Source of the DNA: an uncultured Bacteroidota bacterium
GTDB taxonomy: Bacteria; Bacteroidota; Bacteroidia; 2-12-FULL-35-15
DNA length: 64,000 bases
Direction: 5' to 3'
Assembly: GCA_903919535.1 (NCBI GenBank)
Contig: CAIXIP010000008.1
Span: forward strand, 952 to 64,951
In this document: positions 47,730 through 61,421 of the stretch, in pieces
How the letters are laid out: every line of letters begins with the position of its first letter
How positions within the stretch are numbered: position 1 is the stretch's first letter
Program-made: the position numbers and the translations under genes
Notes under the pieces: model-generated
What the model was told of the DNA's origin: nothing
The model's database searches: none
The model's input: the letters and a program-made list of their open reading frames with translations, nothing else

Positions 47730-48284
47730 GTGAGTAGCACACCTGAAGAAACATATAAGTTAAAAGGATTGAATCGTAATGAATTTATTACGGTGATATA
47801 CAATAGATATGGCAAGAAATTGTATTCATATGCAATTCGTACCTGGAATGTAAATGAAGATGTTGCTTGGGATCTGATCTATAAAACGCTTTATAAAGTA
47901 ATTGACAGTTATACAAAATATCAGTTTCAATCGGAAGAAAAATTTGCATCGTTCATTTTCAAGATTTTTATTAATTATTTACGAAATCACTACAGGGATA
48001 ATAAAACAGATAAAGTATTTGAGTTTAGTGCACTGGATGATGTGGACTTAAGTACTAAAGAAAGTAAAGAAGAAGAACTTAATTCCAATAAAAAATTAAT
48101 TGCTTTAAATGAAGTTTTGGATAAAATGGAAGATTGGGAACGAATGCTTTTGCTGATGAGAAGTGAAGGAAGAGCCTATTCGGATATCGCCCAATATATT
48201 GATAAACCCGAAAATCAGCTGAAAGTATATTATCAACGCTTGAAAGAACAAATTACAAAAAAATTAAATGATCGATCAGAATAA
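47730..48284 (+). CDS. ECF-like RNA polymerase sigma factor
   Basis: Region 2 (AWDLIYKTLYKV...FIFKIFINYLRNHYRD) and region 4 (ERMLLLMRSEGRAYSDIAQYIDKPENQLKVYYQRLKEQ). Its stop overlaps the start of the next gene. Confidence 0.7.
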   Translation: MSSTPEETYKLKGLNRNEFITVIYNRYGKKLYSYAIRTWNVNEDVAWDLIYKTLYKVIDSYTKYQFQSEEKFASFIFKIFINYLRNHYRDNKTDKVFEFSALDDVDLSTKESKEEELNSNKKLIALNEVLDKMEDWERMLLLMRSEGRAYSDIAQYIDKPENQLKVYYQRLKEQITKKLNDRSE

Positions 48285-50715
48285 TAATATAAACGATAAA
48301 CACATCCGCGACTTGCTCAAATGGCGCCTATTAGAGCAAGCTGAGGATGATGATGTACTAACCCAAAAACTTGTTGATATGGAAGCAAAACTTGCATTTA
48401 GTGAAGAGGCGCTATATGTGCCGTCATTACAAAAAGAAAAAGAACTCTTAGAAAAATTAGCAAAAATTAAACCCAATAGTATATTCCTTAAATGGCTATT
48501 GCCGGCTGTATTGGCTGTATTTATAATAGCTGCATTATTAATATATAATAATTTATCACAAAGATCATTAAATGCATCTGCAAATAGAATAGAGGGTCAG
48601 AATAAAAATAATGACTTGCCCTTTGTTGCATTATCAGATTCTTCAAAACAAAAAGAAAATACGATTATTGTAAAAGACTCTCTTGAAAAAATTACCCAAT
48701 CCGATACAACAACAACTGAAAGAAACGAAAAGTGGATGGTAGGTGATCCGGGAATAAAAGTGGACTATAAAACCGCTTCGCCAAAAAAGGATTCAAAATT
48801 TGTGGATTATGATAACATACCCGTTTTAACAGAAAAGCAAAAGGTGGAGAATGAAAAGCAAAAGGAAAAGATGTTAAAGCAACTGATGAAATGTGACAAT
48901 AACTATTGGGCCATTATCCCAACGAGTAAAGAAATATTTCCTGCTTCTTCCATTCCCAATACATTTTTAATGTCAACTACAGAAGTTACAAATGCCCAAT
49001 ATCGAGTTTTTTTGTATGATTTGCTTATTCATGATAAAATTGAAGAATACATAAAAGCTGTTCCGGATAGCACAAAATGGAGAGACAAGAATTCTTATAA
49101 TGAACCTTATGTTAGATATTATTTCACTCATCCTGCATATAATGATTACCCAGTATTAAATATCTCACGAGAAGGAGCTGAAATGTATTGTAATTGGCTT
49201 ACCAACTTGATCCATCAAAAGAGCAACAACGAGAAAGAAAAACAAGCACATCGTCAATATGATAATGAAGTGCGCTTGCCAACTGATGAAGAGTGGACGA
49301 TAGCTGCACGTGGAGGGGATGAGAATGCAATTTATCCCTGGGGAACAAATAGTGTGCAAAATGAATATGGATGTTATTTATGCAATATGCCAAGAAGAGA
49401 TGATATAAAACCCGAAGAGAAATGTATGGCAGTATATGCGGATGTCACAACTCCCGTTCATGCTTATAATCCCAATAAATATGGTTTGTATAATTTGAGT
49501 GGTAACGTTGCTGAAATGGTTGTAAAAAAGGACTCGCATATTCCGATAACCAAAGGTGGTGGCTGGAGAAGTGATCCTGAGCACGTAAAAATTAACAGTG
49601 AAGAAAATGAAGGAGTCGTCACCGCCTCTCCATTTATAGGCTTCAGACCGATTCTTACCATTTCAGAAGAAAGTAAAAAGCATCGAAAATTTATGTTGGA
49701 TCATCACATCCCGATTTTGAGTGATAATCAGATGGATGAAAATGATATTCAAAAAGCAAAAATGATTAAATCATTAATCAAATTAAATAAAATTGATTGG
49801 GCATACATACCGATGAGTACTGACAAAATATATGGGGAAGTGGTTTCTGTGCAAGGGTTTTATATGGCGACAACAGAGGTAACGAACAATAATTACCGTA
49901 TATTTTTATACGATCTTTTAATTCATGATAAGCTTGATGATTATTTGAAAGCGTTGCCTGATACTGCAAAATGGGATATCAATAAATTTAAGACAAAGGG
50001 ATATAATCCTGTGCCTAATAAAACGAACAAAGCAAACTCCGACACAACTAAAAAAACTGTTTTCTTTGAACCAATGATAAATATGTATTTCTGGCATCCT
50101 GCCTATAATGATTATCCAGTTGTTAATGTTTCTAGAGAAGGAGCAAAGATGTATTGCGATTGGTTAACAAATGTCTTTAATGAAAAAATTAAATCAGATA
50201 ATCCGAAAGAAAAATGGGAATCACTTTTTATGAATGATTTGCGTTTGCCCGCAGAAGAAGAATGGATGATTGCAGCCCGAGGAGGTAAAGTTGAAGCGGA
50301 ATATCCTTGGGAAATAAATAGTGTGCAAAATGCGAAAGGATGTTTCCTTTGTAATTTCGGAATTATCAAAGCAACCGATAAAATTGATACAACTGCAATT
50401 TGTGATAACGCTTTAAAGCAGCCTAGTTTTGCAAAATCTCCAGCTCGAGTTGGTTCTATGGTTTTTGATGGTGCTTTCACCACGGCAAAAGTTGGGACGT
50501 ACAATCCGAATGATTTTGGTTTGTATAACATGAGTGGGAATGTAGCCGAAATGGTTTTAAAATTCAAAAGTAAAATACCTGCAACAAAAGGTGGCAGTTG
50601 GTATAGTGATGCTGATCACATTAAAATAAGCGCAGAAGATGAATACGAAGTAGTCATCGGAGCCTCTCCGTTTATCGGATTTCGACCAGTGTTTACTGCA
50701 AAGCAAAGCAAATAA
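48268..50715 (+). CDS. Membrane-anchored anti-sigma-like protein with two tandem FGE-sulfatase (SUMF1/GldJ-like) domains
   Basis: ~70-aa cytoplasmic N-terminus, one TM (LPAVLAVFIIAALLIY), then two ~250-aa repeats. Each repeat contains TTEVTN.QYR.FLYDL, HPAYNDYPV.N.SREGA.MYC.WLTN, (V/L)RLP..EEW.IAARGG, GLYN(L/M)SGNVAEMV and TKGG.W, the hallmarks of formylglycine-generating-enzyme-like domains. Confidence 0.7.
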   Translation: MIDQNNNINDKHIRDLLKWRLLEQAEDDDVLTQKLVDMEAKLAFSEEALYVPSLQKEKELLEKLAKIKPNSIFLKWLLPAVLAVFIIAALLIYNNLSQRSLNASANRIEGQNKNNDLPFVALSDSSKQKENTIIVKDSLEKITQSDTTTTERNEKWMVGDPGIKVDYKTASPKKDSKFVDYDNIPVLTEKQKVENEKQKEKMLKQLMKCDNNYWAIIPTSKEIFPASSIPNTFLMSTTEVTNAQYRVFLYDLLIHDKIEEYIKAVPDSTKWRDKNSYNEPYVRYYFTHPAYNDYPVLNISREGAEMYCNWLTNLIHQKSNNEKEKQAHRQYDNEVRLPTDEEWTIAARGGDENAIYPWGTNSVQNEYGCYLCNMPRRDDIKPEEKCMAVYADVTTPVHAYNPNKYGLYNLSGNVAEMVVKKDSHIPITKGGGWRSDPEHVKINSEENEGVVTASPFIGFRPILTISEESKKHRKFMLDHHIPILSDNQMDENDIQKAKMIKSLIKLNKIDWAYIPMSTDKIYGEVVSVQGFYMATTEVTNNNYRIFLYDLLIHDKLDDYLKALPDTAKWDINKFKTKGYNPVPNKTNKANSDTTKKTVFFEPMINMYFWHPAYNDYPVVNVSREGAKMYCDWLTNVFNEKIKSDNPKEKWESLFMNDLRLPAEEEWMIAARGGKVEAEYPWEINSVQNAKGCFLCNFGIIKATDKIDTTAICDNALKQPSFAKSPARVGSMVFDGAFTTAKVGTYNPNDFGLYNMSGNVAEMVLKFKSKIPATKGGSWYSDADHIKISAEDEYEVVIGASPFIGFRPVFTAKQSK

Positions 50716-50721
50716 AATTTT

Positions 50722-50760
50722 AAACGTCCTTCAATTTGTTTGAAGGACGTTTCATTTTGC
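50722..50760 (+). terminator. Hairpin terminator after the FGE-domain gene
   Basis: aaacgtccttcaa-tttgtt-tgaaggacgttt followed by cattttg. Confidence 0.5.
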
Positions 50761-51560: not shown

Positions 51561-52910
51561 TTAAATCAACCCTCTTGCTTTTAATTCCAGGTATTTATTA
51601 ATGGTTTTTACCGAAAGGTTTTGAGGTGAAGTTAAAATGCTGTGAATGCCATATTTTTCAAGCTCTTTTACAATTAATTTTTTTTCGTAAACAAATTTTT
51701 CGGCAATAATTTTATTGTAAACTTCTTCTGTTGTTGTTGCCGGTTTATCCAGGTAAGCTTTTAGCTCAGTGTTTTCAAAAAATATAACAACTAATAAATG
51801 GTCTTTTGCCAATCTTCGCAGATATTTTAATTGTCGCTGCAAGCCCGATAAGCTCTCGAAGTTAGTATAGATCAATAATAAACTTCGTTGATTAATTTTT
51901 GTTTTAACATTGATATACAAATTTTCGAAATCGCTTTCCAAGTAACCTGTTTTTTGTTTGTATAACAGAGTTAATATTTTTTGAAGATGTGCATTTTTTC
52001 TTTCCGCAGGTAAAATGGATTGAACTTTATTAGAGAATGTAATAATGCCTGCTTTATCTTGCTTCAACATTGCGATATTTGAAATCACTAAACTGGAGTT
52101 GATCGCATAATCCAATAAACTCAGTCCTTCAAATGGCATTTTCATTACTCTTCCCATGTCAATAACAGAATACACTTGTTGTGATTTTTCATCCTGATAT
52201 TGATTGATCATCAATTTGTTTTTACGTGCGGTTGCTTTCCAATTGATGGTGCGATAATCATCACCACCAACATATTCTTTTATCTGTTCAAATTCTGCGT
52301 TGTTTCCTCTTCTTCTAACCTTCTTTATTCCTACTTCAGTTAATTGATTAGTGATAGCAAGTAATTCATATTTTCGCATTTGCAAAAATGAAGGGTATAC
52401 AGGAACCATCATGTCTTGTGAAAAACGATATCGTTTTTGAATAAAACCTATTGGGCTTTTCACAAAAATGTTCAATGCACCAAAACTATATTCTCCACGT
52501 TTAACCGGGTGAACAATGTAGTTGATTGTTTTGCTTTTTCCTGAGTCAATATTTACTTTGAAGTTGGAATCACGCGCTTGAAACTGAAAAGGAAGTTCAT
52601 CAATGATATTTAATCTGGCAGGAAATAGGTATTTGTTTTCTAAAATAATCTGAATAAAATTATCATCACCATTTGATAATTTGTCTAAAGCATTTCGTCT
52701 TCCAAATATTCCATTTTTGTTGGCATATAAAATTAGTATATCAGTTATTAATAATGCAGCAATAATATATATACTATAAACTGCTATTGGCTCAACAAGG
52801 GGGTAAAAGAAAGCCAAGGTCAACAATATCACTTCTGCCGCTGTAATGTAATATAGCAGATTGGTAAAATATATTGATTTAATAAACGCTTTCATTTTTT
52901 CTAAATACAA
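51561..52910 (-). CDS. DUF58-domain protein (vWA-like partner of MoxR) with two N-terminal TM segments
   Basis: RRRGNNAEFEQIKEYVGGDDYRTINWKATARKNKLMINQYQDE is the DUF58 signature. Confidence 0.8.
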   Translation of the reverse strand: MYLEKMKAFIKSIYFTNLLYYITAAEVILLTLAFFYPLVEPIAVYSIYIIAALLITDILILYANKNGIFGRRNALDKLSNGDDNFIQIILENKYLFPARLNIIDELPFQFQARDSNFKVNIDSGKSKTINYIVHPVKRGEYSFGALNIFVKSPIGFIQKRYRFSQDMMVPVYPSFLQMRKYELLAITNQLTEVGIKKVRRRGNNAEFEQIKEYVGGDDYRTINWKATARKNKLMINQYQDEKSQQVYSVIDMGRVMKMPFEGLSLLDYAINSSLVISNIAMLKQDKAGIITFSNKVQSILPAERKNAHLQKILTLLYKQKTGYLESDFENLYINVKTKINQRSLLLIYTNFESLSGLQRQLKYLRRLAKDHLLVVIFFENTELKAYLDKPATTTEEVYNKIIAEKFVYEKKLIVKELEKYGIHSILTSPQNLSVKTINKYLELKARGLI

Positions 52911-52933
52911 ACTTTGAACTTGAAACTATTTCA

Positions 52934-53911
52934 CTAACGTGGGACTTCAATTTTTTCTATGATCTGTTTAATAATTTCATTAGTTGTAATGCCTTCCATT
53001 TCCTTTTCAGGAGTTAGCATTACACGATGTTTAAGAACAGGCGTAGCAACAAATTTAATGTCGTCAGGTGTTACAAAATCCCTTCCACTCATTGCTGCAA
53101 TAGCTTTTGAACTTGATAGTATTGCCAAAGATGCCCGTGGTGAAGCACCTAAGTATAAGGATGAATTATTTCTTGTTTGATTTACAATTTTTGCGATGTA
53201 TGAAATTAAGTTCGCATCTATATGTATCTGCCTTACTTTACTTCTGTATTCTTTCACTTCATCTGCATTTAAAACCCCATTTATTGAATTAATATCAATA
53301 ATGTTTTTTCGGGAATGAAAGTCAGCAATGATTTTTGTTTCATCCTCTAAGGAAGGGTAATCTACTTCGATCTTAAAAAGGAAACGGTCGAGTTGAGCTT
53401 CCGGTAAACGATAGGTGCCTTCATGCTCAATTGGATTTTGTGTTGCCAGAACAATAAAGGGAGCAGTCAACAAATATGTTTTTCCATCAACGGTAATTTG
53501 TCGTTCTTCCATTGCTTCAAACAGGGCCGATTGTGTTTTTGCCGGTGCTCGATTGATCTCATCAATCAAAATAATGTTTGAAAATAACGGTCCGGATTTA
53601 AATTCAAATTCCGAAGTCTTTAAATTATAAATACTTGTTCCTATAATATCTGAAGGCATTAGGTCGGGAGTAAACTGAATGCGAGAAAATCCCACCGACA
53701 TTGTTTTGGCAAGTAATTTTGCGGTAAGCGTTTTTGCTACCCCGGGAACACCTTCAATTAAAACATGCCCATCAGCCAGAACAGCAGCAATAAGCAGTTC
53801 AATCATATTGTCTTGGCCAACAATGATCTTGTTTACTTCATGTTTGATATTGCTTACAGCTTGCTGCAAGCCACTTAGGTCAACTCTGTTTTGAAAAACT
53901 TGTTCTTCCAT
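52934..53911 (-). CDS. MoxR-family AAA+ ATPase
   Basis: IVGQD...GHVLIEGVPGVAKT (Walker A), ILIDEINRA (Walker B). 325 aa. Confidence 0.9.
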   Translation of the reverse strand: MEEQVFQNRVDLSGLQQAVSNIKHEVNKIIVGQDNMIELLIAAVLADGHVLIEGVPGVAKTLTAKLLAKTMSVGFSRIQFTPDLMPSDIIGTSIYNLKTSEFEFKSGPLFSNIILIDEINRAPAKTQSALFEAMEERQITVDGKTYLLTAPFIVLATQNPIEHEGTYRLPEAQLDRFLFKIEVDYPSLEDETKIIADFHSRKNIIDINSINGVLNADEVKEYRSKVRQIHIDANLISYIAKIVNQTRNNSSLYLGASPRASLAILSSSKAIAAMSGRDFVTPDDIKFVATPVLKHRVMLTPEKEMEGITTNEIIKQIIEKIEVPR

Positions 53912-53970
53912 ATGTTTGTTTTATTAGTTCGTTAGTATGGTTAATTTACATCAACGTGTTAGCAATAAAA

Positions 53971-55206
53971 TTATCTTTTATTTTCTTTATGAAATTCTTC
54001 AATTAATCGATTTAGCTTTAATAATTCTTGTTGTGAAATAGTTTGTTTGATACTTAGATCGGAAAAATAATAAAATATATCATGTACTTTTTGATACTCA
54101 ATTCCCGATAAATTTGAGATGCGTTCAATGAAAAGGTCGTCATAAATTGTTGTTTTTACTTGAAAAGTAGAACGGATAAATTCCAAGAAATATGTGATTT
54201 TTTTATCAGCAACATTTTTATGGTTTCCTGCCTGGTAGTATAATGTGCCTACTATATCAACGAATTGCAAGGTTGTGTTGCGGTAGGGTTCAATGATTGG
54301 GATTATGCGTTGTTTGCGCTTTATTCCAAAAAGCATAAAAATAATTAGTGATAGCAGTGATAAATAATATGCGTTTCGTAATAATGGATTGTTAAAAATA
54401 ACTCGTAACGGGCTATCAGTTTTGTCATTTCCTGCTTTGTAATATTCGTCCCAAATAATTGATTGGTTGGGTAAGCAGGAAAGCGAATTTAGAACATACG
54501 ACATGTTTTTGCTTACAAAATGATAGTTACTGAAAGCTTCAGGATTTGTATTTATAAAAATTTTCCCCTTACCCATTTTTATAGAAATAAAATTAATTTC
54601 TTTATTATTGGTTAAGCCAAGAACCTTGCTTCTCAGTGTGTCGAAGGATTTTAAATAAGTGCCTTCAAACCCTTTTACATATGAATAATTAGAAATATTT
54701 TTAAGTGATGGATTTGAAAAATTGATTTTTATTGTATCATATTGCTTTGTTATTTTTTTAATAGCTGCTGAATCATTGTCAAAACTATTTCCAAGATCAA
54801 AATCATTGTCTGTTTTTAATTTCAATGAATCAGCGAACTTCCCATCGAACTGATTTGCTGCAACAAAAACTATATTCCCTTCAGCAGCAAATTTGAATAA
54901 TTCACGAGTGTCTAGAGTATCGGGTTTAAATACATTATTAATGATAATATAATTATGGTTTGTAATGCCATTTAGATTTAGAGTATTGTAAATTGGAAAT
55001 GTAGCATTACTAATTGTTTGAGAAGGAAAGAGTGTTGGCAATTCGCCATATAAAGCAGAAGTACCAAAAGGGATTTTATCTTTTTTGATATACGAAAGAT
55101 GCCAGTTGATTGGCTTCGGACTTAGCCATTGCAAAACCATTAGCAAGCTAAAACAAATTACTAAAATGGAAATATATTTTCTGTTCCCTTTTAACATTTT
55201 AATCAA
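53971..55206 (-). CDS. DUF4350-like membrane protein (N- and C-proximal TM flanking an extracytoplasmic domain)
   Basis: 411 aa. TM near the N-terminus and at ~290. Part of a MoxR/DUF58 cluster. Confidence 0.45.
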   Translation of the reverse strand: MIKMLKGNRKYISILVICFSLLMVLQWLSPKPINWHLSYIKKDKIPFGTSALYGELPTLFPSQTISNATFPIYNTLNLNGITNHNYIIINNVFKPDTLDTRELFKFAAEGNIVFVAANQFDGKFADSLKLKTDNDFDLGNSFDNDSAAIKKITKQYDTIKINFSNPSLKNISNYSYVKGFEGTYLKSFDTLRSKVLGLTNNKEINFISIKMGKGKIFINTNPEAFSNYHFVSKNMSYVLNSLSCLPNQSIIWDEYYKAGNDKTDSPLRVIFNNPLLRNAYYLSLLSLIIFMLFGIKRKQRIIPIIEPYRNTTLQFVDIVGTLYYQAGNHKNVADKKITYFLEFIRSTFQVKTTIYDDLFIERISNLSGIEYQKVHDIFYYFSDLSIKQTISQQELLKLNRLIEEFHKENKR

Positions 55207-55238
55207 TGTTCATTTTAATGAATGAACTATTATCTTCA

Positions 55239-56009
55239 TTAATTGTTGACTTTAAAATCTTTAAATTTTGATATTGTACTGATAAAACTGTTTTCATCTA
55301 ACTGGAAATCACCATACCAAATATATTCGTATAAAACGGCCAACTCTTTAAACTGCTCACTGTACTTGCTGTTTGAAAGTTCTATCGAATAATCATTGTT
55401 TGTTTTGTCAATTTGCCAGGTAATCAAATTCCTATCACTTAATTCCTTAAGGAGTTTCAAAAAATGCAAACGTACAGCTCTTCTAAAATCTTTCTTAGAT
55501 AGCGCTTCATCAATTAATTCATTGAAATTTATTTTATGAATATCTTCTTCAAATTCTTTAAAATCTATCGGAACGGAAGCACTTTTTCCATAAAATAAAG
55601 CTCGAATATTATTTTTTAATAGCAGGATTATGATTAAAGTTATTGCTGCGATTATTAGCAAATATTCAAATATTTTTAACCCCAATGCACCACCTTTACT
55701 ATCAAAAAGCTCGAAAACTTTACGCCAAAACCATTCTTTGATTCGCTCCCAAAGTGTTTTAGGTGCAGGGCCAACACGGTCATATTTGTAATCTGAGTTG
55801 CTACGTAAAGTGTTTTGTTGTTCACTAGTAAGTGAACGGATTTCAAATTTGGTAGAATCGTATGAGATTTTAATTTTAGACTTTATTGAATCATTTGCAC
55901 AATACACATCAGTACTATATAGTAAACTAGATAGGAGTGTAGTTAAGACAAAAATTAAAAGCTTAATACTGCTGCTCAACATTGCTTTGCGTTGTATTTC
56001 CAATTTCAT
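55239..56009 (-). CDS. DUF4129-domain protein
   Basis: C-terminal W..DKTNNDY...EYIWYGDF pattern. One central TM. Confidence 0.5.
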   Translation of the reverse strand: MKLEIQRKAMLSSSIKLLIFVLTTLLSSLLYSTDVYCANDSIKSKIKISYDSTKFEIRSLTSEQQNTLRSNSDYKYDRVGPAPKTLWERIKEWFWRKVFELFDSKGGALGLKIFEYLLIIAAITLIIILLLKNNIRALFYGKSASVPIDFKEFEEDIHKINFNELIDEALSKKDFRRAVRLHFLKLLKELSDRNLITWQIDKTNNDYSIELSNSKYSEQFKELAVLYEYIWYGDFQLDENSFISTISKFKDFKVNN

Positions 56010-56919
56010 TGATGCGTTCCATTAATCCTACACCATCTTTTGCTTCAGCCAAACTGTAATAATGAAATGCGTTAATAACATATAATACAGAGTATAATAT
56101 GGTGCTACAAAAAGTGCATATGGTGGCAATAATTAAAAAAGCAACAGGAGTTTCTCCGCCACCGTTTTTCATATGACTGATAAGCAATACCATTTGGTAT
56201 ACAACTTGTGGCAACGTAAATACAAAACCAACAATTCCAATTGCAATAGCCGCACAAACTACAATTACCCATGTCCACCAGAAATTCCCTCGCATCACTT
56301 CTCTTGTTCTTCCAAACGACTCAAAGACACCTCTGTCCTCTTGCATTTTGACTAAATAAACAACAGATAATTGCCACATGAGTGGTGGAAATAAAATGAG
56401 CATCCCAAAAATAAAAGCGAGAGCAAATAAAATTCCTAAAAAAGGAACAGCAGTTGTTAGGCCAATAATTATACCTGCAATTACAGCGAAAATAACAATT
56501 GCTAAAAGTGTAAGAACAATAAATACAATAAGTAAGTTGGTAATATTTTGTATAAGTTTATTTGCAACATCATTTACAGTAAATCCGTTTGGACCTTTTT
56601 CCATGTAATTGATCATAAAAGAATAAGTTGTTCCAATTAAAACAATTCCACTTACGAGTGCTGATAACAAAAAAATCAGGAATGACCAACCATATTGTGC
56701 TAAAGGGTTTCCGCTTGTAAAACGGCTAAGGGTAGAAATTTCAATTGCACTGGATTGATAGAATGCTCCGGCAATAGCACTTACAAGAACGAATGGTCCT
56801 GCAATAAAAATGAGTGATTGAAAAAACAATTTAAAGTTTTGCCTTAAAAATTTTACTGTCACATTAAATGTTTCACCAAAATCGCGTACTTGTCTGAAAT
56901 TAATTTTTTCTTGATTCAT
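55963..56919 (-). CDS. Polytopic membrane protein, unknown function
   Basis: 318 aa with ~6 TM segments. In the same co-directional, overlapping gene string. Confidence 0.45.
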   Translation of the reverse strand: MNQEKINFRQVRDFGETFNVTVKFLRQNFKLFFQSLIFIAGPFVLVSAIAGAFYQSSAIEISTLSRFTSGNPLAQYGWSFLIFLLSALVSGIVLIGTTYSFMINYMEKGPNGFTVNDVANKLIQNITNLLIVFIVLTLLAIVIFAVIAGIIIGLTTAVPFLGILFALAFIFGMLILFPPLMWQLSVVYLVKMQEDRGVFESFGRTREVMRGNFWWTWVIVVCAAIAIGIVGFVFTLPQVVYQMVLLISHMKNGGGETPVAFLIIATICTFCSTILYSVLYVINAFHYYSLAEAKDGVGLMERINEIGNTTQSNVEQQY

Positions 56920-56939
56920 AATTTTTTATTGAATTACTA

Positions 56940-57977
56940 TTAAAGATTATTGGAAATATTTAGTTCACCATTTGTATACCGTTTTGCTTTTTTGTTCAGT
57001 TGTATCGGATAAATAATAAAATACCAAATAATGAAAGATAACGAACTGAAAATAATTGTAAGACTCAACCAAATTGGCATTTGTGTATAGCGTGTTACAA
57101 AACTTTCAAAAAAACCTGCTGTAATAAATATTGGAATCAAACCGATAACAATTTTAACTCCTTGTTTAGCTCCCCGTACAAAAGATGCTGCGCGCGAATA
57201 TGTTCCGGGAAATAATATACTGTTTCCCATCGTTAATCCCGCACATCCTGCAATGATGATAGCTGATATTTCTAAAGTGCCATGAATCCAAATTGCCAAA
57301 ACCGATTGAAGTAATAATCCCTTTGCGTAAAAGAAATATTGAAAAGCACCAAGCATTACACCGTTAGAAAATAACATGTACCCTGTGCCGAACGAAAAAA
57401 AGATACCTAATACAAAACAAATTAATGCAACACGAATATTATTAATGGTGATACCAAAAAACATATCCACCTGATTCATGCTTTTGTAAACAGCCATTGG
57501 GTCACCTTTATTTATATTTTCAATGGTCATATTTACATAGCTGTCTCCTAAAATTAAACGAACAAATGTGTCATCCTTTGCTGCTGATACTATTCCAATT
57601 AACATCGCTATTGCGAAAATCAGAAAGGAATACATCAATTGTTTTTGTGAGTTTTTGAAAATAAATGGTAATTCATACTTCCAAAAAGTGATGATGCGTT
57701 TGCTTTTTTCTTTTTTTCTTTTGTAAATTTCCTGATGAACTCTGGCTGCAAGTGAATTGAGATATTGTGTGGTTTTCGCTTTCGGATAATTTGTTCGTGC
57801 ATAGGATAAATCATCTGTTAGCTGAATAAATAGATCAGCCATCAAATCTGGATCCGAAGCGCCTTTTGTTGTAATTAGCGAATCAAATTGTTGCCATTTA
57901 TCGGCATTTTGTTTTAAAAAGGTGATTTCTTTCACAGGCTGGTTCATTAATAATTGAACCATTGTAAATTTATACAA
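56940..57977 (-). CDS. SpoIIM-like (DUF95) membrane protein
   Basis: 345 aa. TM topology and HGTLEISAIIIAG-type motif typical of stage-II-sporulation-M-like proteins. Confidence 0.55.
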   Translation of the reverse strand: MYKFTMVQLLMNQPVKEITFLKQNADKWQQFDSLITTKGASDPDLMADLFIQLTDDLSYARTNYPKAKTTQYLNSLAARVHQEIYKRKKEKSKRIITFWKYELPFIFKNSQKQLMYSFLIFAIAMLIGIVSAAKDDTFVRLILGDSYVNMTIENINKGDPMAVYKSMNQVDMFFGITINNIRVALICFVLGIFFSFGTGYMLFSNGVMLGAFQYFFYAKGLLLQSVLAIWIHGTLEISAIIIAGCAGLTMGNSILFPGTYSRAASFVRGAKQGVKIVIGLIPIFITAGFFESFVTRYTQMPIWLSLTIIFSSLSFIIWYFIIYPIQLNKKAKRYTNGELNISNNL

Positions 57978-58072
57978 AATATTGAATTGAAAATTGTTTA
58001 GATGAAATTGCTGGAAATACTTATTTTTATAAAAATTAATAGATCAAGAAATAATATTTTGACCATTCCTAT

Positions 58073-58789
58073 ATGGAAAATATAAAAATACAAACCACAC
58101 AAAATGTAGATATTGAATATGAGTTGGCTAGTATTGGCGATCGTATTTTGGCTACTTTGTTAGATTATTTGTTTTTTATAGCTTATTTTTTTGTGATACT
58201 TTTAATTGCAGCACTTACTAACGATGCAGTCTTTGAAAGTATTGCAGTCATTTCACTTTTGTCACTGCCAATATTATTGTATGATTTACTTTGCGAAACT
58301 TTTTTTCAGGGTAAATCATTTGGAAAAATGATCATGAAAATTAAAGTAGTAAAATTAGATGGTACTCAAGCTAATTTTGGAGCTTATCTATTGCGATGGT
58401 TATTACGTGTTGTTGATACTCGAATATTTGGTGGCGCTATTGCCCTTATTGCTGTTTTGGTAAACGGTAAAGGTCAGCGCATCGGAGATATGGCTGCAGG
58501 AACAACGGTAATAAAAATGAAGGCCCAAATAACAATTAGCGATACTATTTTAAATAAAGTAAAACCTAATTATACGCTGGTTTTTCCAGAAGTGGCAAAG
58601 CTGAGTGATAATGATATTGCGATTATTAAAGATGTAATGCGAATAAGTATTCAAAGTGAAAATATGGAAGCAATTAAAAAACTGGCTCTCAAAACTAAAG
58701 CTGCGATGGGTATTACTACCAATTTGCCTCACACACAATTTTTAGCAACCGTTGTGCAGGACTATAGCCATTATAATTTTGATAAATAA
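58073..58789 (+). CDS. RDD-family membrane protein
   Basis: RILATLLDYL... and ...RVVDTR...GQRIGDMAAGTTV: the R, D, D residues and TM pattern of RDD domains. Confidence 0.7.
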   Translation: MENIKIQTTQNVDIEYELASIGDRILATLLDYLFFIAYFFVILLIAALTNDAVFESIAVISLLSLPILLYDLLCETFFQGKSFGKMIMKIKVVKLDGTQANFGAYLLRWLLRVVDTRIFGGAIALIAVLVNGKGQRIGDMAAGTTVIKMKAQITISDTILNKVKPNYTLVFPEVAKLSDNDIAIIKDVMRISIQSENMEAIKKLALKTKAAMGITTNLPHTQFLATVVQDYSHYNFDK

Positions 58790-58804: not shown

Positions 58805-59056
58805 TCATTCTATTTCACTTTCAGTAGTCTTAAAATAAAAATATTTTATTTCACAACTAGTTTCATTCCAGGAAATAGCAGAATAATTATTTTTGTAATA
58901 GTCGTTACACTCGGCTGTTGCCTTTTTCTTTGTGTCTTTTACGGTAAACACTGCTATGGTGCCTGATGGGTCTGTGCAAACACAAGTGTAGTCTTTTTTG
59001 CAGCTTGAAAAAATGATAGATATTATAATTGGTAAAACAACTTTAATTGTTTTCAT
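58805..59056 (-). CDS. Small lipoprotein, unknown function
   Basis: 83 aa. Lipobox FSSC. Four further Cys residues. Confidence 0.4.
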   Translation of the reverse strand: MKTIKVVLPIIISIIFSSCKKDYTCVCTDPSGTIAVFTVKDTKKKATAECNDYYKNNYSAISWNETSCEIKYFYFKTTESEIE

Positions 59057-59126: not shown

Positions 59127-61421
59127 TTAATGCTGAATAACAATTCTTTTCGTTAAAGCACCCGATTTTACTTTGCCTTCGGTTGCCAGCTCAACAACTT
59201 TAAAAACATAAATTCCTTGACTTAAATTTTCTGTGGAGATACCTAGTGAGCTGTTAAATATTTTTTGTGAAGAAATGATTTGCCCCATCACATTATATAT
59301 TTCCACCTGGAATCTACTGGTTGTATTATTTAAAATGTGAATTGTTACACTGTTGTCTGCCGGATTTGGAAATACTTCTAAATTCCAATGTATTGTATTG
59401 TCGTTGTTTTCTATAGTTTCGCTTAAACTCGATACTCCTTTATAAAATGCAGCTCCGCCTTGATAATTTCCGATCATAAAATCTAAATAGCCATCATTGT
59501 TGATATCTGTAGCTGTTGGTGAAGTATGTGCGCCTTCATAGATATTTAAATACGTTGAGTCAACTAATGTAAATGCTCCCGAAATGTTTCCATCAATATT
59601 ATCGAATAATCGCAAATAGCCATTTTCTGCGCCAACCAATAATTTTGTGACTCCAGCTTGTTTAAATAAGCACGGATAACTATATCCAGTGACGTATCCA
59701 TATTGGATCACTTTTACGTTTCCCCAAAAGTGTGAAACGGAATCCAAAACAGGAATTGTAGCGGTGGCACTTCCTGTGTGATGGTAAAATGCCAATTTCC
59801 CGCTGCGTCCTCCAATTACAATATCGTTTTTACCATCGTTGTCAACATCTATAATTTGTGGTGCGGCAAAATCTCCAACATCAATTGCACGATTACTCGA
59901 ATTTTTTAATGTAATAGGTGTTGTAACAAAACTTGCTGGAGCACCTGATAGGGCAGTGTTTTCATAATAAAATAATTTTCCGTCAAACATCCCGATAATC
60001 ATATCTCCATCACCATCTCCATCCATATCACCGAAAGCCGGTGCTAAATTTAATTTTCCTAGTGTGCTTAAATTATTGTAATCACGTGTTACTAAATCGA
60101 ATTTTGGATTGCTTGCTGTTCCTGTATTTTTAAACTGTGCTATTTTGCTTTGATAATTTGGTGAACCGTAATAGCCATAATTTCCAATGAATAGATCTTT
60201 TAATCCATCATTATCATAATCGAAAAATACAGGATAAGCACCCTCGCCAACATCAATTATATTGTCTTGTAGAAAATTTGATTGTTGAAATTGAAATACA
60301 GGAAAGTTTGTTGTGCCAGTGTTTTTGTAAAAAATTACACTATTAAAATTTTCAGAGCCGCTGGAGTTTGGACTTACAATCAAATCTTTTTTGCCATCGT
60401 TATTTACATCTAGATAATATGCGCAAGGAAATTGCGTAAGGTTAACTGCACTCGTACTTGAATTATTTGCCGGGAAAAGCGTGTCAACTGATATCATATT
60501 AGCAGAAGTTGGACTTCCTCCATTCATTACAGAAGTTAGATTATTATATGAAATCCCCCCTACAACAATATCTTTTGCTCCATCTCCATTTAGATCCATA
60601 CAAATTTCGCAGGAGCCTGAATGTCTGTCTGCTGAACGTTGGTCGCTATTAATTTCTATAATGCCTGGATTTGCAACATTACCAAAGCAAGTGTCATGTA
60701 ATGTGAATTTATTGTTTAGTGGGCTTTCGGCTGCATAACCCCAGCATCGGTTTTTCATCTGAAATTTTAAACTATCACAAGTGCCATATAATTCCATGCT
60801 CTGGTTTTGATGGTATTCCATAAATGTTCCTGTAATGGCAAATGTTACAACATCTAAATCGCCATCATTATCAATATCTGCAATTGATGGAATATCTACC
60901 GAACTGATGTATAAATTTATTAATCCACCTGCCGGAGGATTATAAATAGAGTATGTAAGCTGCTTTACTAAAGTAAATTGCAATCCTGTAGCTATGCTCG
61001 ATGTGTTTTTGTAAACATTGAATCCTCCACCGTAATCAGAATAGCTGAAAATGTCTTCTTTTCCATCACAATTATAATCACGAAGCAATGCCCAGTCATG
61101 TAGCTTTGGGAATTTGCTTTCGTATTTAGGGTCGTATTTGTAATCAACGGCATTTGCTGTGCCCGCATTTATATAAGTGCGTATCTTATTTCCCGTCCGA
61201 TCAAAAATAAAGAGATCTTTTATCCCATCTAAATTCAGGTCAATTTCAGATATCTGAATAAAATTCAATCCTCCTGCCCAAGGATTAAGAATAGTATTAC
61301 CGTTAATCTTTACAGGGATGCTGTCATTTTGCAAAAAAAAAGGCTGAGCAGACGCAATGTTTGTAAGAAACAAACAAACTAATAGTGCAGTAAAAGGGAT
61401 CTTTGATTTCAACATGATCAT
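59127..61421 (-). CDS. FG-GAP/VCBS-repeat (integrin-alpha-like propeller) protein with T9SS C-terminal sorting domain
   Basis: Eight D.(N/D).DG..D(I/L/V) calcium-binding repeats (NCDGKEDIF, DIDNDGDLDVV, DYDNDGLKDLFIG...). Signal peptide. C-terminal T9SS CTD (EVFPNPADNSVTIHIL...GIYVFKV). Confidence 0.75.
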   Translation of the reverse strand: MIMLKSKIPFTALLVCLFLTNIASAQPFFLQNDSIPVKINGNTILNPWAGGLNFIQISEIDLNLDGIKDLFIFDRTGNKIRTYINAGTANAVDYKYDPKYESKFPKLHDWALLRDYNCDGKEDIFSYSDYGGGFNVYKNTSSIATGLQFTLVKQLTYSIYNPPAGGLINLYISSVDIPSIADIDNDGDLDVVTFAITGTFMEYHQNQSMELYGTCDSLKFQMKNRCWGYAAESPLNNKFTLHDTCFGNVANPGIIEINSDQRSADRHSGSCEICMDLNGDGAKDIVVGGISYNNLTSVMNGGSPTSANMISVDTLFPANNSSTSAVNLTQFPCAYYLDVNNDGKKDLIVSPNSSGSENFNSVIFYKNTGTTNFPVFQFQQSNFLQDNIIDVGEGAYPVFFDYDNDGLKDLFIGNYGYYGSPNYQSKIAQFKNTGTASNPKFDLVTRDYNNLSTLGKLNLAPAFGDMDGDGDGDMIIGMFDGKLFYYENTALSGAPASFVTTPITLKNSSNRAIDVGDFAAPQIIDVDNDGKNDIVIGGRSGKLAFYHHTGSATATIPVLDSVSHFWGNVKVIQYGYVTGYSYPCLFKQAGVTKLLVGAENGYLRLFDNIDGNISGAFTLVDSTYLNIYEGAHTSPTATDINNDGYLDFMIGNYQGGAAFYKGVSSLSETIENNDNTIHWNLEVFPNPADNSVTIHILNNTTSRFQVEIYNVMGQIISSQKIFNSSLGISTENLSQGIYVFKVVELATEGKVKSGALTKRIVIQH

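Follow-up and report, generated by a model that had tools for sequence, protein, structure and literature searches.

MoxR ATPases rank with the most widespread AAA+ proteins, and very few of them have known clients. The pairs RavA-ViaA, NorQ-NorD and CbbQ-CbbO, each composed of a MoxR ATPase and a von Willebrand factor A (vWA) protein, use ATP to mature or remodel a specific client, and in the Bat operon MoxR and DUF58 genes precede the BatA-BatE genes for vWA and TPR proteins. The SpoIIM (DUF95), RDD, DUF58, DUF4129 and DUF4350 families are large and have little or no established biochemistry; the DUF4129 domain is known in fusion to a transglutaminase partner, for example in TgpA. Here we describe a cluster of seven genes (51561-58789) that joins MoxR to these five families and to an all-helical membrane protein without a curated family, called TM6 below, in a 64,000-nt stretch of contig CAIXIP010000008.1 from an uncultured Bacteroidota bacterium (hereafter the window; G+C ~33%). 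The seven genes constitute a conserved functional unit that very probably encodes a membrane complex. The explanation that we prefer, with a confidence that stops a little short of even, is a single cytoplasmic-membrane machine of two modules, in which MoxR and DUF58 would remodel a membrane core with an envelope-directed output. The window locus is a typical representative of a variant of MoxR-DUF58 systems that is widespread but experimentally uncharacterised, and the interest attaches to the class of cluster rather than to this copy.

Parts of the neighbourhood were already described computationally in 2015, when Makarova, Galperin and Koonin grouped an archaeal DUF4350 family (arCOG01314) with a MoxR ATPase of COG0714 and an Ig-vWA protein, predicted that they form a complex for secretion or membrane remodelling, and remarked that bacterial SpoIIM homologs adjoin a vWA protein and a COG0714 ATPase (PMC5898192). 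The archaeal system shares with the present cluster the trio of DUF4350, MoxR and a DUF58-like vWA protein, including a GldG-like ectodomain of flavodoxin-like type. In contrast, its neighbourhoods add Ig-like S-layer proteins (arCOG02884), none of which occurs among the seven genes or their conserved neighbours, and it has not been described with SpoIIM, RDD, DUF4129 or TM6. The moxR2 locus of mycobacteria (Rv3689-Rv3695 in M. tuberculosis, BB28_RS01875-01900 in M. chelonae) comprises, by annotation, a membrane protein, DUF4350, MoxR, DUF58, SpoIIM and RDD, but in another gene order and orientation and with a first membrane protein that is not detectably TM6. The Bat operon, the mycobacterial ripA-ripB-moxR1-DUF58-vWA operon and the bifidobacterial PFNA cluster possess the same MoxR (AAA_3) and DUF58 core with membrane-associated partners. 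Those partners, however, are BatA-E vWA/TPR proteins, NlpC/P60 hydrolases, or kinase, FN3 and transglutaminase proteins, and none of these MoxR-proper/DUF58 operons includes SpoIIM, RDD or DUF4350; in the window, the ORF that follows DUF58 is convergent and unrelated rather than a Bat gene. The RavA-ViaA, NorQ-NorD and CbbQ-CbbO pairs, in which an AAA+ MoxR ATPase works with a vWA-type adaptor, provide the model for our motor module, where the differences are that their adaptors have an intact metal ion-dependent adhesion site (MIDAS) and serve a known soluble or membrane enzyme, whereas the MIDAS here is degenerate.

Two further relatives concern single members of the cluster. SpoIIM of the B. 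subtilis DMP engulfment complex recruits SpoIIP and SpoIID (PMC5898192), and DUF95/SpoIIM proteins typify circular-bacteriocin clusters and have been linked there to removal of the leader, circularisation and secretion (PMC6131525, PMC13463998). Both share the PF01944 domain with the cluster protein, and an N/N/HGxxE/E residue set is invariant among the members compared here. Unlike B. subtilis, hosts of this cluster do not sporulate; the flanking window ORFs checked contain no match to SpoIID or SpoIIP, no hydrolase family recurs among the neighbours, and neither the window nor the recurrent neighbours include a bacteriocin precursor, an immunity protein or an ABC transporter. The DUF4350 protein resembles GldG, the accessory component of the gliding ABC transporter GldAFG, in having a related ectodomain, with a fold like the GH42 middle domain, and an anchor of two transmembrane (TM) helices; a difference is that no ABC transporter genes accompany the cluster, which also occurs in non-gliding phyla. 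A full-text literature search retrieved no functional study of the cluster, in agreement with the earlier note on this DNA, to whose author no assigned function was known.

Inspection of the ORF list confirms, at the coordinates and strands first reported, a minus-strand block of six ORFs in one direction and a single ORF diverging from it on the plus strand. The minus-strand block begins with a SpoIIM/DUF95-family polytopic membrane protein (56940-57977) and continues with TM6 (318 aa, 55963-56919), a DUF4129 protein (256 aa, 55239-56009), a DUF4350 protein (411 aa, 53971-55206), a MoxR-family AAA+ ATPase (325 aa, 52934-53911) and, as its last gene, a DUF58 protein (449 aa, 51561-52910), while the divergent plus-strand gene encodes an RDD-family membrane protein (238 aa, 58073-58789). 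Successive genes of the block are spaced by 20, -47, 32, 59 and 23 nt. The block is co-directional, as had been described, and tightly packed, but it is not mostly overlapping: the sole overlap, of 47 nt, joins the TM6 and DUF4129 genes. Because SpoIIM orthologs start at the residue matching V15 of the longest ORF, translation probably begins at GTG 57935 or ATG 57947 rather than at TTG 57977. The divergent region between SpoIIM and RDD (57978-58072, read directly from the sequence), which measures 95 nt with the longest SpoIIM ORF and about 95-137 nt with a later start (~137 nt at GTG 57935), is presumed to act as the promoter region. Scans of the region for sigma-70 consensus sites (47 against 45.4 expected from shuffles) and for terminators (6 against 4.7 in shuffled sequence) revealed no excess, and the divergent spacer contains no exact Bacteroidetes-type TAnnTTTG motif.

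The seven window proteins were searched against Pfam, with scores judged against the family cut-offs. SpoIIM (PF01944), DUF4350 (PF14258), MoxR (AAA_3), DUF58 (PF01882) and RDD (PF06271) all score above them, which bears out the domain names proposed from the sequence, and an NCBIfam search produced nothing specific for any of the seven. The DUF4129 assignment holds for the family of proteins rather than for the window copy, where PF13559 reaches 19.6 bits against a cut-off of 24.8 but 25 of 35 positional orthologs match the model (best E 1.4e-13). A hydropathy scan and two AlphaFold models, of TM6 and of the DUF4350 protein, predict TM helices in six of the seven proteins, with MoxR alone being soluble.

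Conservation of the cluster was examined by scanning one genome per species with a Bacteroidota-only SpoIIM alignment; a cross-phylum alignment was too divergent for a genome scan, and other phyla were covered through a plasmid and chromid collection and the literature. A SpoIIM relative is present in at least 560 species of the Bacteroidota/Ignavibacteriota type. The best 80 of these loci were scored with hidden Markov models built for the seven families, where 55 loci had enough flanking sequence. All seven families are found together in 46 of the 55, the quartet of SpoIIM, TM6, DUF4129 and DUF4350 in 51, and RDD is kept in 50. Bacteroidota loci show a divergent RDD gene followed in the other direction by SpoIIM, TM6, DUF4129, DUF4350, MoxR and DUF58, and 24 Ignavibacteriota-type loci retain the six-gene order unchanged with a co-directional RDD gene at its 3' end; RDD shifts position and strand between the two groups, yet remains with the cluster. 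DUF4350 homologs at ~50% identity lie in the identical seven-gene arrangement with other flanks. The flanking genes are lineage-specific housekeeping genes (RecX; phosphoribosyltransferase, enoyl-CoA hydratase and Dus), and no eighth neighbour family is common to different lineages among the 80 loci. The seven families recur in the same order in 46 of 55 loci from other species whose flanks are unrelated, far more than chance would produce.

Conservation as a unit, for which a gene-neighbourhood check had been proposed, extends over Bacteroidota, Ignavibacteriota, Alphaproteobacteria and Actinomycetota. The cross-phylum evidence comprises a few loci, obtained by searching annotated plasmids and chromids by tblastn with the SpoIIM protein, together with annotations. 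Rhizobium (51 records) and Paracoccus carry the co-directional series DUF805-DUF4129-DUF4350-MoxR-DUF58-SpoIIM-RDD, where the order was read in one record each and the context scores are 19 bits for DUF4129 and 32.7 bits for DUF4350. One or two DUF805 genes occupy the TM6 position upstream of DUF4129 (loci L004, 3563-4664, and L005, 4284-4724) and may represent a non-orthologous replacement; the Rhizobium DUF805 proteins were rejected as TM6 homologs (hhalign probability at most 1.1%). Nocardia has the arrangement DUF4129 (44.7 bits)-MoxR-DUF58-RDD/SpoIIM, and Prevotella has the complete Bacteroidota arrangement. The earlier note had inferred that RDD, SpoIIM-like, DUF4129 and DUF4350 proteins recur with MoxR-DUF58 across phyla, and this is borne out directly by six families in Rhizobium and Paracoccus and five in Nocardia. 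For mycobacteria, annotation of Rv3689-Rv3695 adds DUF4350 to the set: consecutive M. chelonae genes correspond to Rv3689 (membrane protein), Rv3691 (DUF4350), Rv3692 (MoxR), Rv3693 (DUF58), Rv3694c (SpoIIM) and Rv3695 (RDD) (PMC8191103). In the same study, RNA-seq of a double lysogen recorded a 60- to 500-fold decrease across the contiguous block BB28_RS01830-01900, which begins with a KR-domain gene, takes in glpF, glpK and PadR and ends with the MoxR cluster (PMC8191103). This drop may reflect a genomic deletion rather than regulation, and it is not counted here as co-regulation because loss of the whole stretch, glpK and glpF included, could explain it.

A different SpoIIM context is seen in haloarchaea, whose SpoIIM paralogs have no MoxR nearby. 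Those of haloarchaeal megaplasmids (489-518 aa; L008 7921-9390 and L009 7843-9399) bear an N-terminal membrane extension of ~300 aa with a weak DUF7847 match, and the gene is preceded by a conserved hypothetical gene of ~270 aa. Despite the DUF7847 match, the extension was rejected as a TM6 equivalent (hhalign probability at most 1.1%). Since Alphaproteobacteria and Actinomycetota carry the cluster as well, a role in gliding or in the type IX secretion system (T9SS), among the phenotypes suggested for examination, is unlikely as its general function.

The strongest computational argument for physical contact within the cluster comes from gene fusion. In Bernardetia, a 617-aa protein annotated as SpoIIM aligns to TM6 over residues 331-615 (271 columns, hhalign 93.5%, E 2.3e-7), a result obtained with a 139-sequence TM6 profile where a narrower first profile had given 9% probability. 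A search with the Bernardetia fusion yielded more than 100 protein clusters (603-638 aa) that match it at 38-44% identity over 99-100% of its length; their members belong to Saprospiraceae, Cytophagaceae and other Bacteroidota. In one genome the fusion gene is followed by DUF4129, a 421-aa protein that takes the place of DUF4350 and for which no Pfam match is recorded, MoxR and DUF58. As both are fused in one chain, SpoIIM and TM6 are likely to interact, and the C-terminus of SpoIIM and the N-terminus of TM6 would therefore lie on one side of the membrane, consistent with the predicted topology. A single chain of 903 aa that unites SpoIIM, TM6 and DUF4129 (protein P0499, L092 157-2868) is known from one 3.9-kb contig; the triple fusion may be genuine, or it may have arisen as an artefact of assembly or of a frameshift.

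The fusion also bears on whether the cluster is one system or two. RDD, SpoIIM and TM6 on one hand, and DUF4129, DUF4350, MoxR and DUF58 on the other, could be independent systems that happen to lie side by side, which would fit the occurrence of each module without the other: the Bernardetia fusion gene is divergent from RDD and no motor module is found within 9-10 kb, and the archaeal DUF4350, MoxR and vWA trio occurs without SpoIIM (PMC5898192). Against such independence, four phylum-level groups keep the two modules side by side in differing gene orders, and the 903-aa protein, though from a single short contig, joins SpoIIM and TM6 to DUF4129. We regard mere adjacency as improbable and return to a single two-module machine, the parts of which are considered in turn.

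The membrane core would consist of SpoIIM, TM6 and RDD. The SpoIIM protein scores 134 bits to PF01944 (cut-off 26.9) over the whole profile (positions 1-163 of 163) and is composed of a basic N-terminal domain of ~110 aa followed by the polytopic SpoIIM domain. Precomputed Pfam records of orthologs assign the N-terminal domain to the newer family PF28475 (DUF8413), which is present in every cluster-associated SpoIIM ortholog recorded here and is predicted to be cytoplasmic. Within the polytopic domain, the intramembrane residues N180, N205, H232-G233-x-x-E236 and E291 do not vary across Bacteroidota, Rhizobium, Nocardia and the haloarchaeal paralogs; a PDB sequence search with SpoIIM gave no real match. 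TM6 matches no Pfam or NCBIfam family, and a profile search of 1.84 billion representatives nevertheless defines a large family, with 2334 representatives (clustered at 50% identity) for E<=1e-3 and 1498 for E<=1e-10, in which N- and C-terminal motifs are both highly conserved. Its AlphaFold model is all-helical (pLDDT 85, pTM 0.83) and finds no significant fold match in a Foldseek search of the PDB, where the best hits (E of 0.025 or above, TM-score <=0.37) are generic long-helix matches on which homology to ABC exporters was rejected. Distant family members show sub-threshold matches to GPDPase_memb, UPF0259, DUF7847 and DUF4013, the best being 27.1 bits to PF10110 (cut-off 29.6), and the window TM6 shows none.

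These features of the core invite a reading as an export or processing system, in which SpoIIM, TM6 and RDD would form a conduit or intramembrane enzyme for a peptide, protein or lipid-linked substrate, powered or gated by MoxR-DUF58. The invariant polar residues N180, N205, H232, E236 and E291 suit a catalytic or substrate site better than a passive scaffold, and DUF95/SpoIIM is needed for circular-bacteriocin maturation and secretion, where an lcyD knockout retains the mature peptide inside the cell (PMC6131525, PMC13463998). The relation of the DUF4350 ectodomain to GldG, an ABC transporter accessory protein, and the proposal of the DUF4350-MoxR-vWA module as a 'novel secretion system' by Makarova et al. 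(PMC5898192) point the same way. However, no conserved cargo gene, precursor-peptide gene or ABC transporter stands beside the cluster in the 80 loci, TM6 matches no PDB transporter fold, and no DUF95 protein has a demonstrated enzymatic activity (PMC13463998, PMC6131525). Export or processing is, in our assessment, possible if doubtful.

A related proposal follows the logic of FtsEX, such that ATP hydrolysis, transmitted through the bitopic proteins, would activate peptidoglycan enzymes recruited by SpoIIM and RDD. An RDD-NlpC/P60 peptidase heterodimer is predicted in C. jejuni (PMC13181095), Rv3694c (SpoIIM) and Rv3695 (RDD) were recovered in one membrane-protein pull-down with the divisome-associated Rv0954 (PMC8093794), and the mycobacterial moxR1-DUF58 operon adjoins ripA-ripB. 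All of these threads are indirect and come from paralogous systems. In addition, hydrolase genes are not among the conserved neighbours of the cluster, the match of TM6 to the FtsX model is weak (19.9 bits, cut-off 25.5) and receives no backing from the fold search, and the motor module and SpoIIM homologs exist in archaea, where homologs of SpoIID and SpoIIP are undetected (PMC5898192). A platform for control of cell-wall hydrolases is an unlikely account of the cluster.

The last component of the core, RDD, scores 64 bits to PF06271 and has three predicted TM helices and a C-terminal soluble region of ~100 aa, with R24, D31 and D139 conserved in at least 95% of 79 homologs. One Halobacillus RDD protein is reported, in the only experimental account of such activity, as a Na+(Li+,K+)/H+ antiporter (PMC5996927), and the best NCBIfam matches of MoxR, far below cut-offs, are chelatase subunits. 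These observations would suit a role in ion or metal handling, with RDD as a cation/proton antiporter and MoxR-DUF58 inserting a metal or cofactor in the manner of NorQD, CoxDE or the chelatases. We find this very improbable, as the metal site of DUF58 is degenerate (see below), no metalloenzyme client gene is conserved nearby, and the family-defining residues R35 and D42 are dispensable for antiport in the Halobacillus protein (PMC5996927).

The motor module of the preferred two-module machine rests on MoxR and DUF58. MoxR matches AAA_3 (PF07726) at 214 bits and AAA_lid_2 (PF17863) at 86 bits, its translation has intact Walker A (GVPGVAKT) and Walker B (LIDEINR) motifs, and it aligns at 286 bits to PDB 2R44, which was deposited as an uncharacterised protein. 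MoxR also matches the bpMoxR model at 49 bits and shows weak PADLOC matches to the DolB and IetA ATPases, by which the cluster could be counted among the MoxR-vWA biological-conflict (anti-phage or toxin) systems of the kind described by Kaur et al. in 2020. This reading is disfavoured to the point of being scarcely credible: the AAA_3 score far exceeds that of bpMoxR, no beta-propeller or effector domain is present, the other proteins have no PADLOC match save one of 21.7 bits between RDD and the TM tail of PD-T4-6, and the surroundings are housekeeping genes with lineage-wide synteny rather than variable islands.

The DUF58 gene lies 23 nt downstream of MoxR, and the pair is retained in 47 of 55 loci. 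Its product scores 66 bits to PF01882 (cut-off 23.4) and presents, by hydropathy scan, an N-terminal TM hairpin at residues ~27-60 with basic flanks followed by a vWA-like domain, for which a weak VWA_2 match spans residues 249-321. Following the positive-inside pattern, the basic flanks of the hairpin would place the vWA-like domain in the cytoplasm, on the same side as MoxR. The MIDAS position, as assigned from the VWA_2 match, reads D251-x-G253-R254-x-M256 (D-M-G-R-V-M) instead of DxSxS and is conserved at this level in at least 95% of 64 homologs; the later MIDAS Asp reads Asn by inspection (LLLIYTNFES). The expected pairing of MoxR with a vWA/DUF58 partner is thus found in the adjacent gene, but in a form that lacks the canonical motif. 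PDB sequence searches with DUF58 and DUF4350 gave no real match.

DUF4129 and DUF4350 provide candidate couplers between the two sides of the membrane. Hydropathy analysis of the DUF4129 protein predicts an N-terminal signal or anchor, an outside loop of ~85 aa, a TM helix at 113-131 and a cytoplasmic DUF4129 helical domain. The DUF4350 protein, which scores 37.9 bits to PF14258 (cut-off 30.4), is predicted to comprise a TM helix, an extracytoplasmic alpha/beta domain of ~230 aa, a second TM helix and a cytoplasmic five-helix tail of ~110 aa. Its earlier description as a two-TM protein with an extracytoplasmic domain agrees with the AlphaFold model (pLDDT 76.5), in which helices 8-28 and 274-296 lie on either side of the alpha/beta domain. 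A Foldseek search relates this ectodomain to a middle domain of GH42 beta-galactosidases and GH164 enzymes that serves trimerisation and not catalysis (E 1.7e-5), in agreement with published HHpred links of DUF4350 to GldG and PF08532 (PMC5898192). The cytoplasmic tail was considered as a cryptic DUF4129 domain and rejected (hhalign probability 0.2%).

On the observed gene set, domain content, conservation as a unit and SpoIIM-TM6 fusion we build a model, for which the physical complex, its topology, its contacts, the direction of energy flow and the substrate are all inferred. Module A would be a polytopic core of the SpoIIM-family protein, TM6 and RDD; module B would be the soluble MoxR ATPase, held at the membrane by DUF58, plus the couplers. 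As bitopic couplers, DUF4129 and DUF4350 would reach into the cytoplasm with their helical tails and display domains on the outer side of the membrane. On the pattern of other MoxR-vWA pairs, MoxR would hydrolyse ATP with DUF58 as the adaptor, such that the two assemble or conformationally remodel the membrane core and the outward-facing parts. As its output, the machine would remodel, process or export a substrate that lies in the membrane or beyond the cytoplasm. Domain content and conservation as a unit support the original interpretation of the cluster as a membrane-embedded, MoxR-driven machine. Further points in its favour are the recurrence in other phyla under different gene orders, the retention of RDD in spite of its move, the SpoIIM-TM6 fusion, the occurrence of each module by itself, the predicted TM helices in six of the seven proteins, the close spacing on one strand and the joint recovery of Rv3694c and Rv3695 from a single membrane-protein pull-down (PMC8093794). 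Export or processing and hydrolase control are the main specific alternatives, with ion or metal handling, defence and mere adjacency less likely.

Several observations weigh against the model. The predicted topologies come from a crude hydropathy scan and single-chain models. DUF58 has no canonical MIDAS, the usual client-binding motif of vWA adaptors, and the archaeal vWA protein is predicted to be secreted (PMC5898192), whereas the TM hairpin and positive-inside pattern here point to the cytoplasm. In Alphaproteobacteria, DUF805 proteins stand in for TM6. Three loci (L031, L050 and L054) keep RDD-SpoIIM-TM6-DUF4129-DUF4350 with no MoxR or DUF58 within ~7 kb downstream, and SpoIIM stands alone in four (L036, L059, L063 and L067), from which it follows that the motor is not always adjacent. 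Finally, the 80 loci are the closest relatives of the window SpoIIM (at least 59% identity), such that the 84% of flanked loci with all seven families may overstate conservation across the family.

A more specific version of the model places the SpoIIM N/N/H/E/E set at its catalytic or translocating heart, with MoxR driving an extracytoplasmic reaction through a MIDAS-less DUF58 and the two couplers. We consider this version rather unlikely. If true, it would describe an equivalent, powered by an AAA+ ATPase, of the ABC 'mechanotransmission' systems exemplified by FtsEX, extending from Bacteroidota to M. tuberculosis, and would give five DUF-level families together their first mechanistic role. 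What is new here is the seven-part definition of the cluster, the size of the TM6 family, the widespread SpoIIM-TM6 fusion, the mobile yet retained RDD gene and the conserved MIDAS-less DUF58. The cluster joins the large families named at the outset and the unannotated TM6 family (more than 2000 representatives) into one candidate machine. Tractable carriers exist in Rhizobium leguminosarum, Mycobacterium smegmatis, M. tuberculosis, Pontibacter and Prevotella, which makes the function directly testable, and a functional result would bear on circular-bacteriocin maturation through DUF95 and on other MoxR-DUF58 operons.

Several features of the window surround the cluster. Upstream in window coordinates, 48268-50715 on the plus strand encodes an 815-aa protein with an N-terminal TM helix and two tandem FGE-sulfatase (SUMF1-like) domains (PF03781, 207 bits). 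The gene is unrelated to the cluster, and the neighbours differ at orthologous clusters. A 151-aa antisense ORF (50112-50567, minus strand) lies wholly within this gene and is most likely spurious. An apparent bidirectional intrinsic terminator, consisting of a perfect 13-bp inverted repeat whose loop measures 5 nt and of T-runs on both strands, separates the FGE-sulfatase gene from the ORF that follows (50722-50752). On the other side, 59127-61421 (minus strand) encodes a 764-aa FG-GAP repeat protein whose C-terminal Por_Secre_tail, a T9SS sorting domain, supports a Bacteroidota host, and an ORF for a putative 83-aa lipoprotein (58805-59056) lies between RDD and the FG-GAP protein gene.

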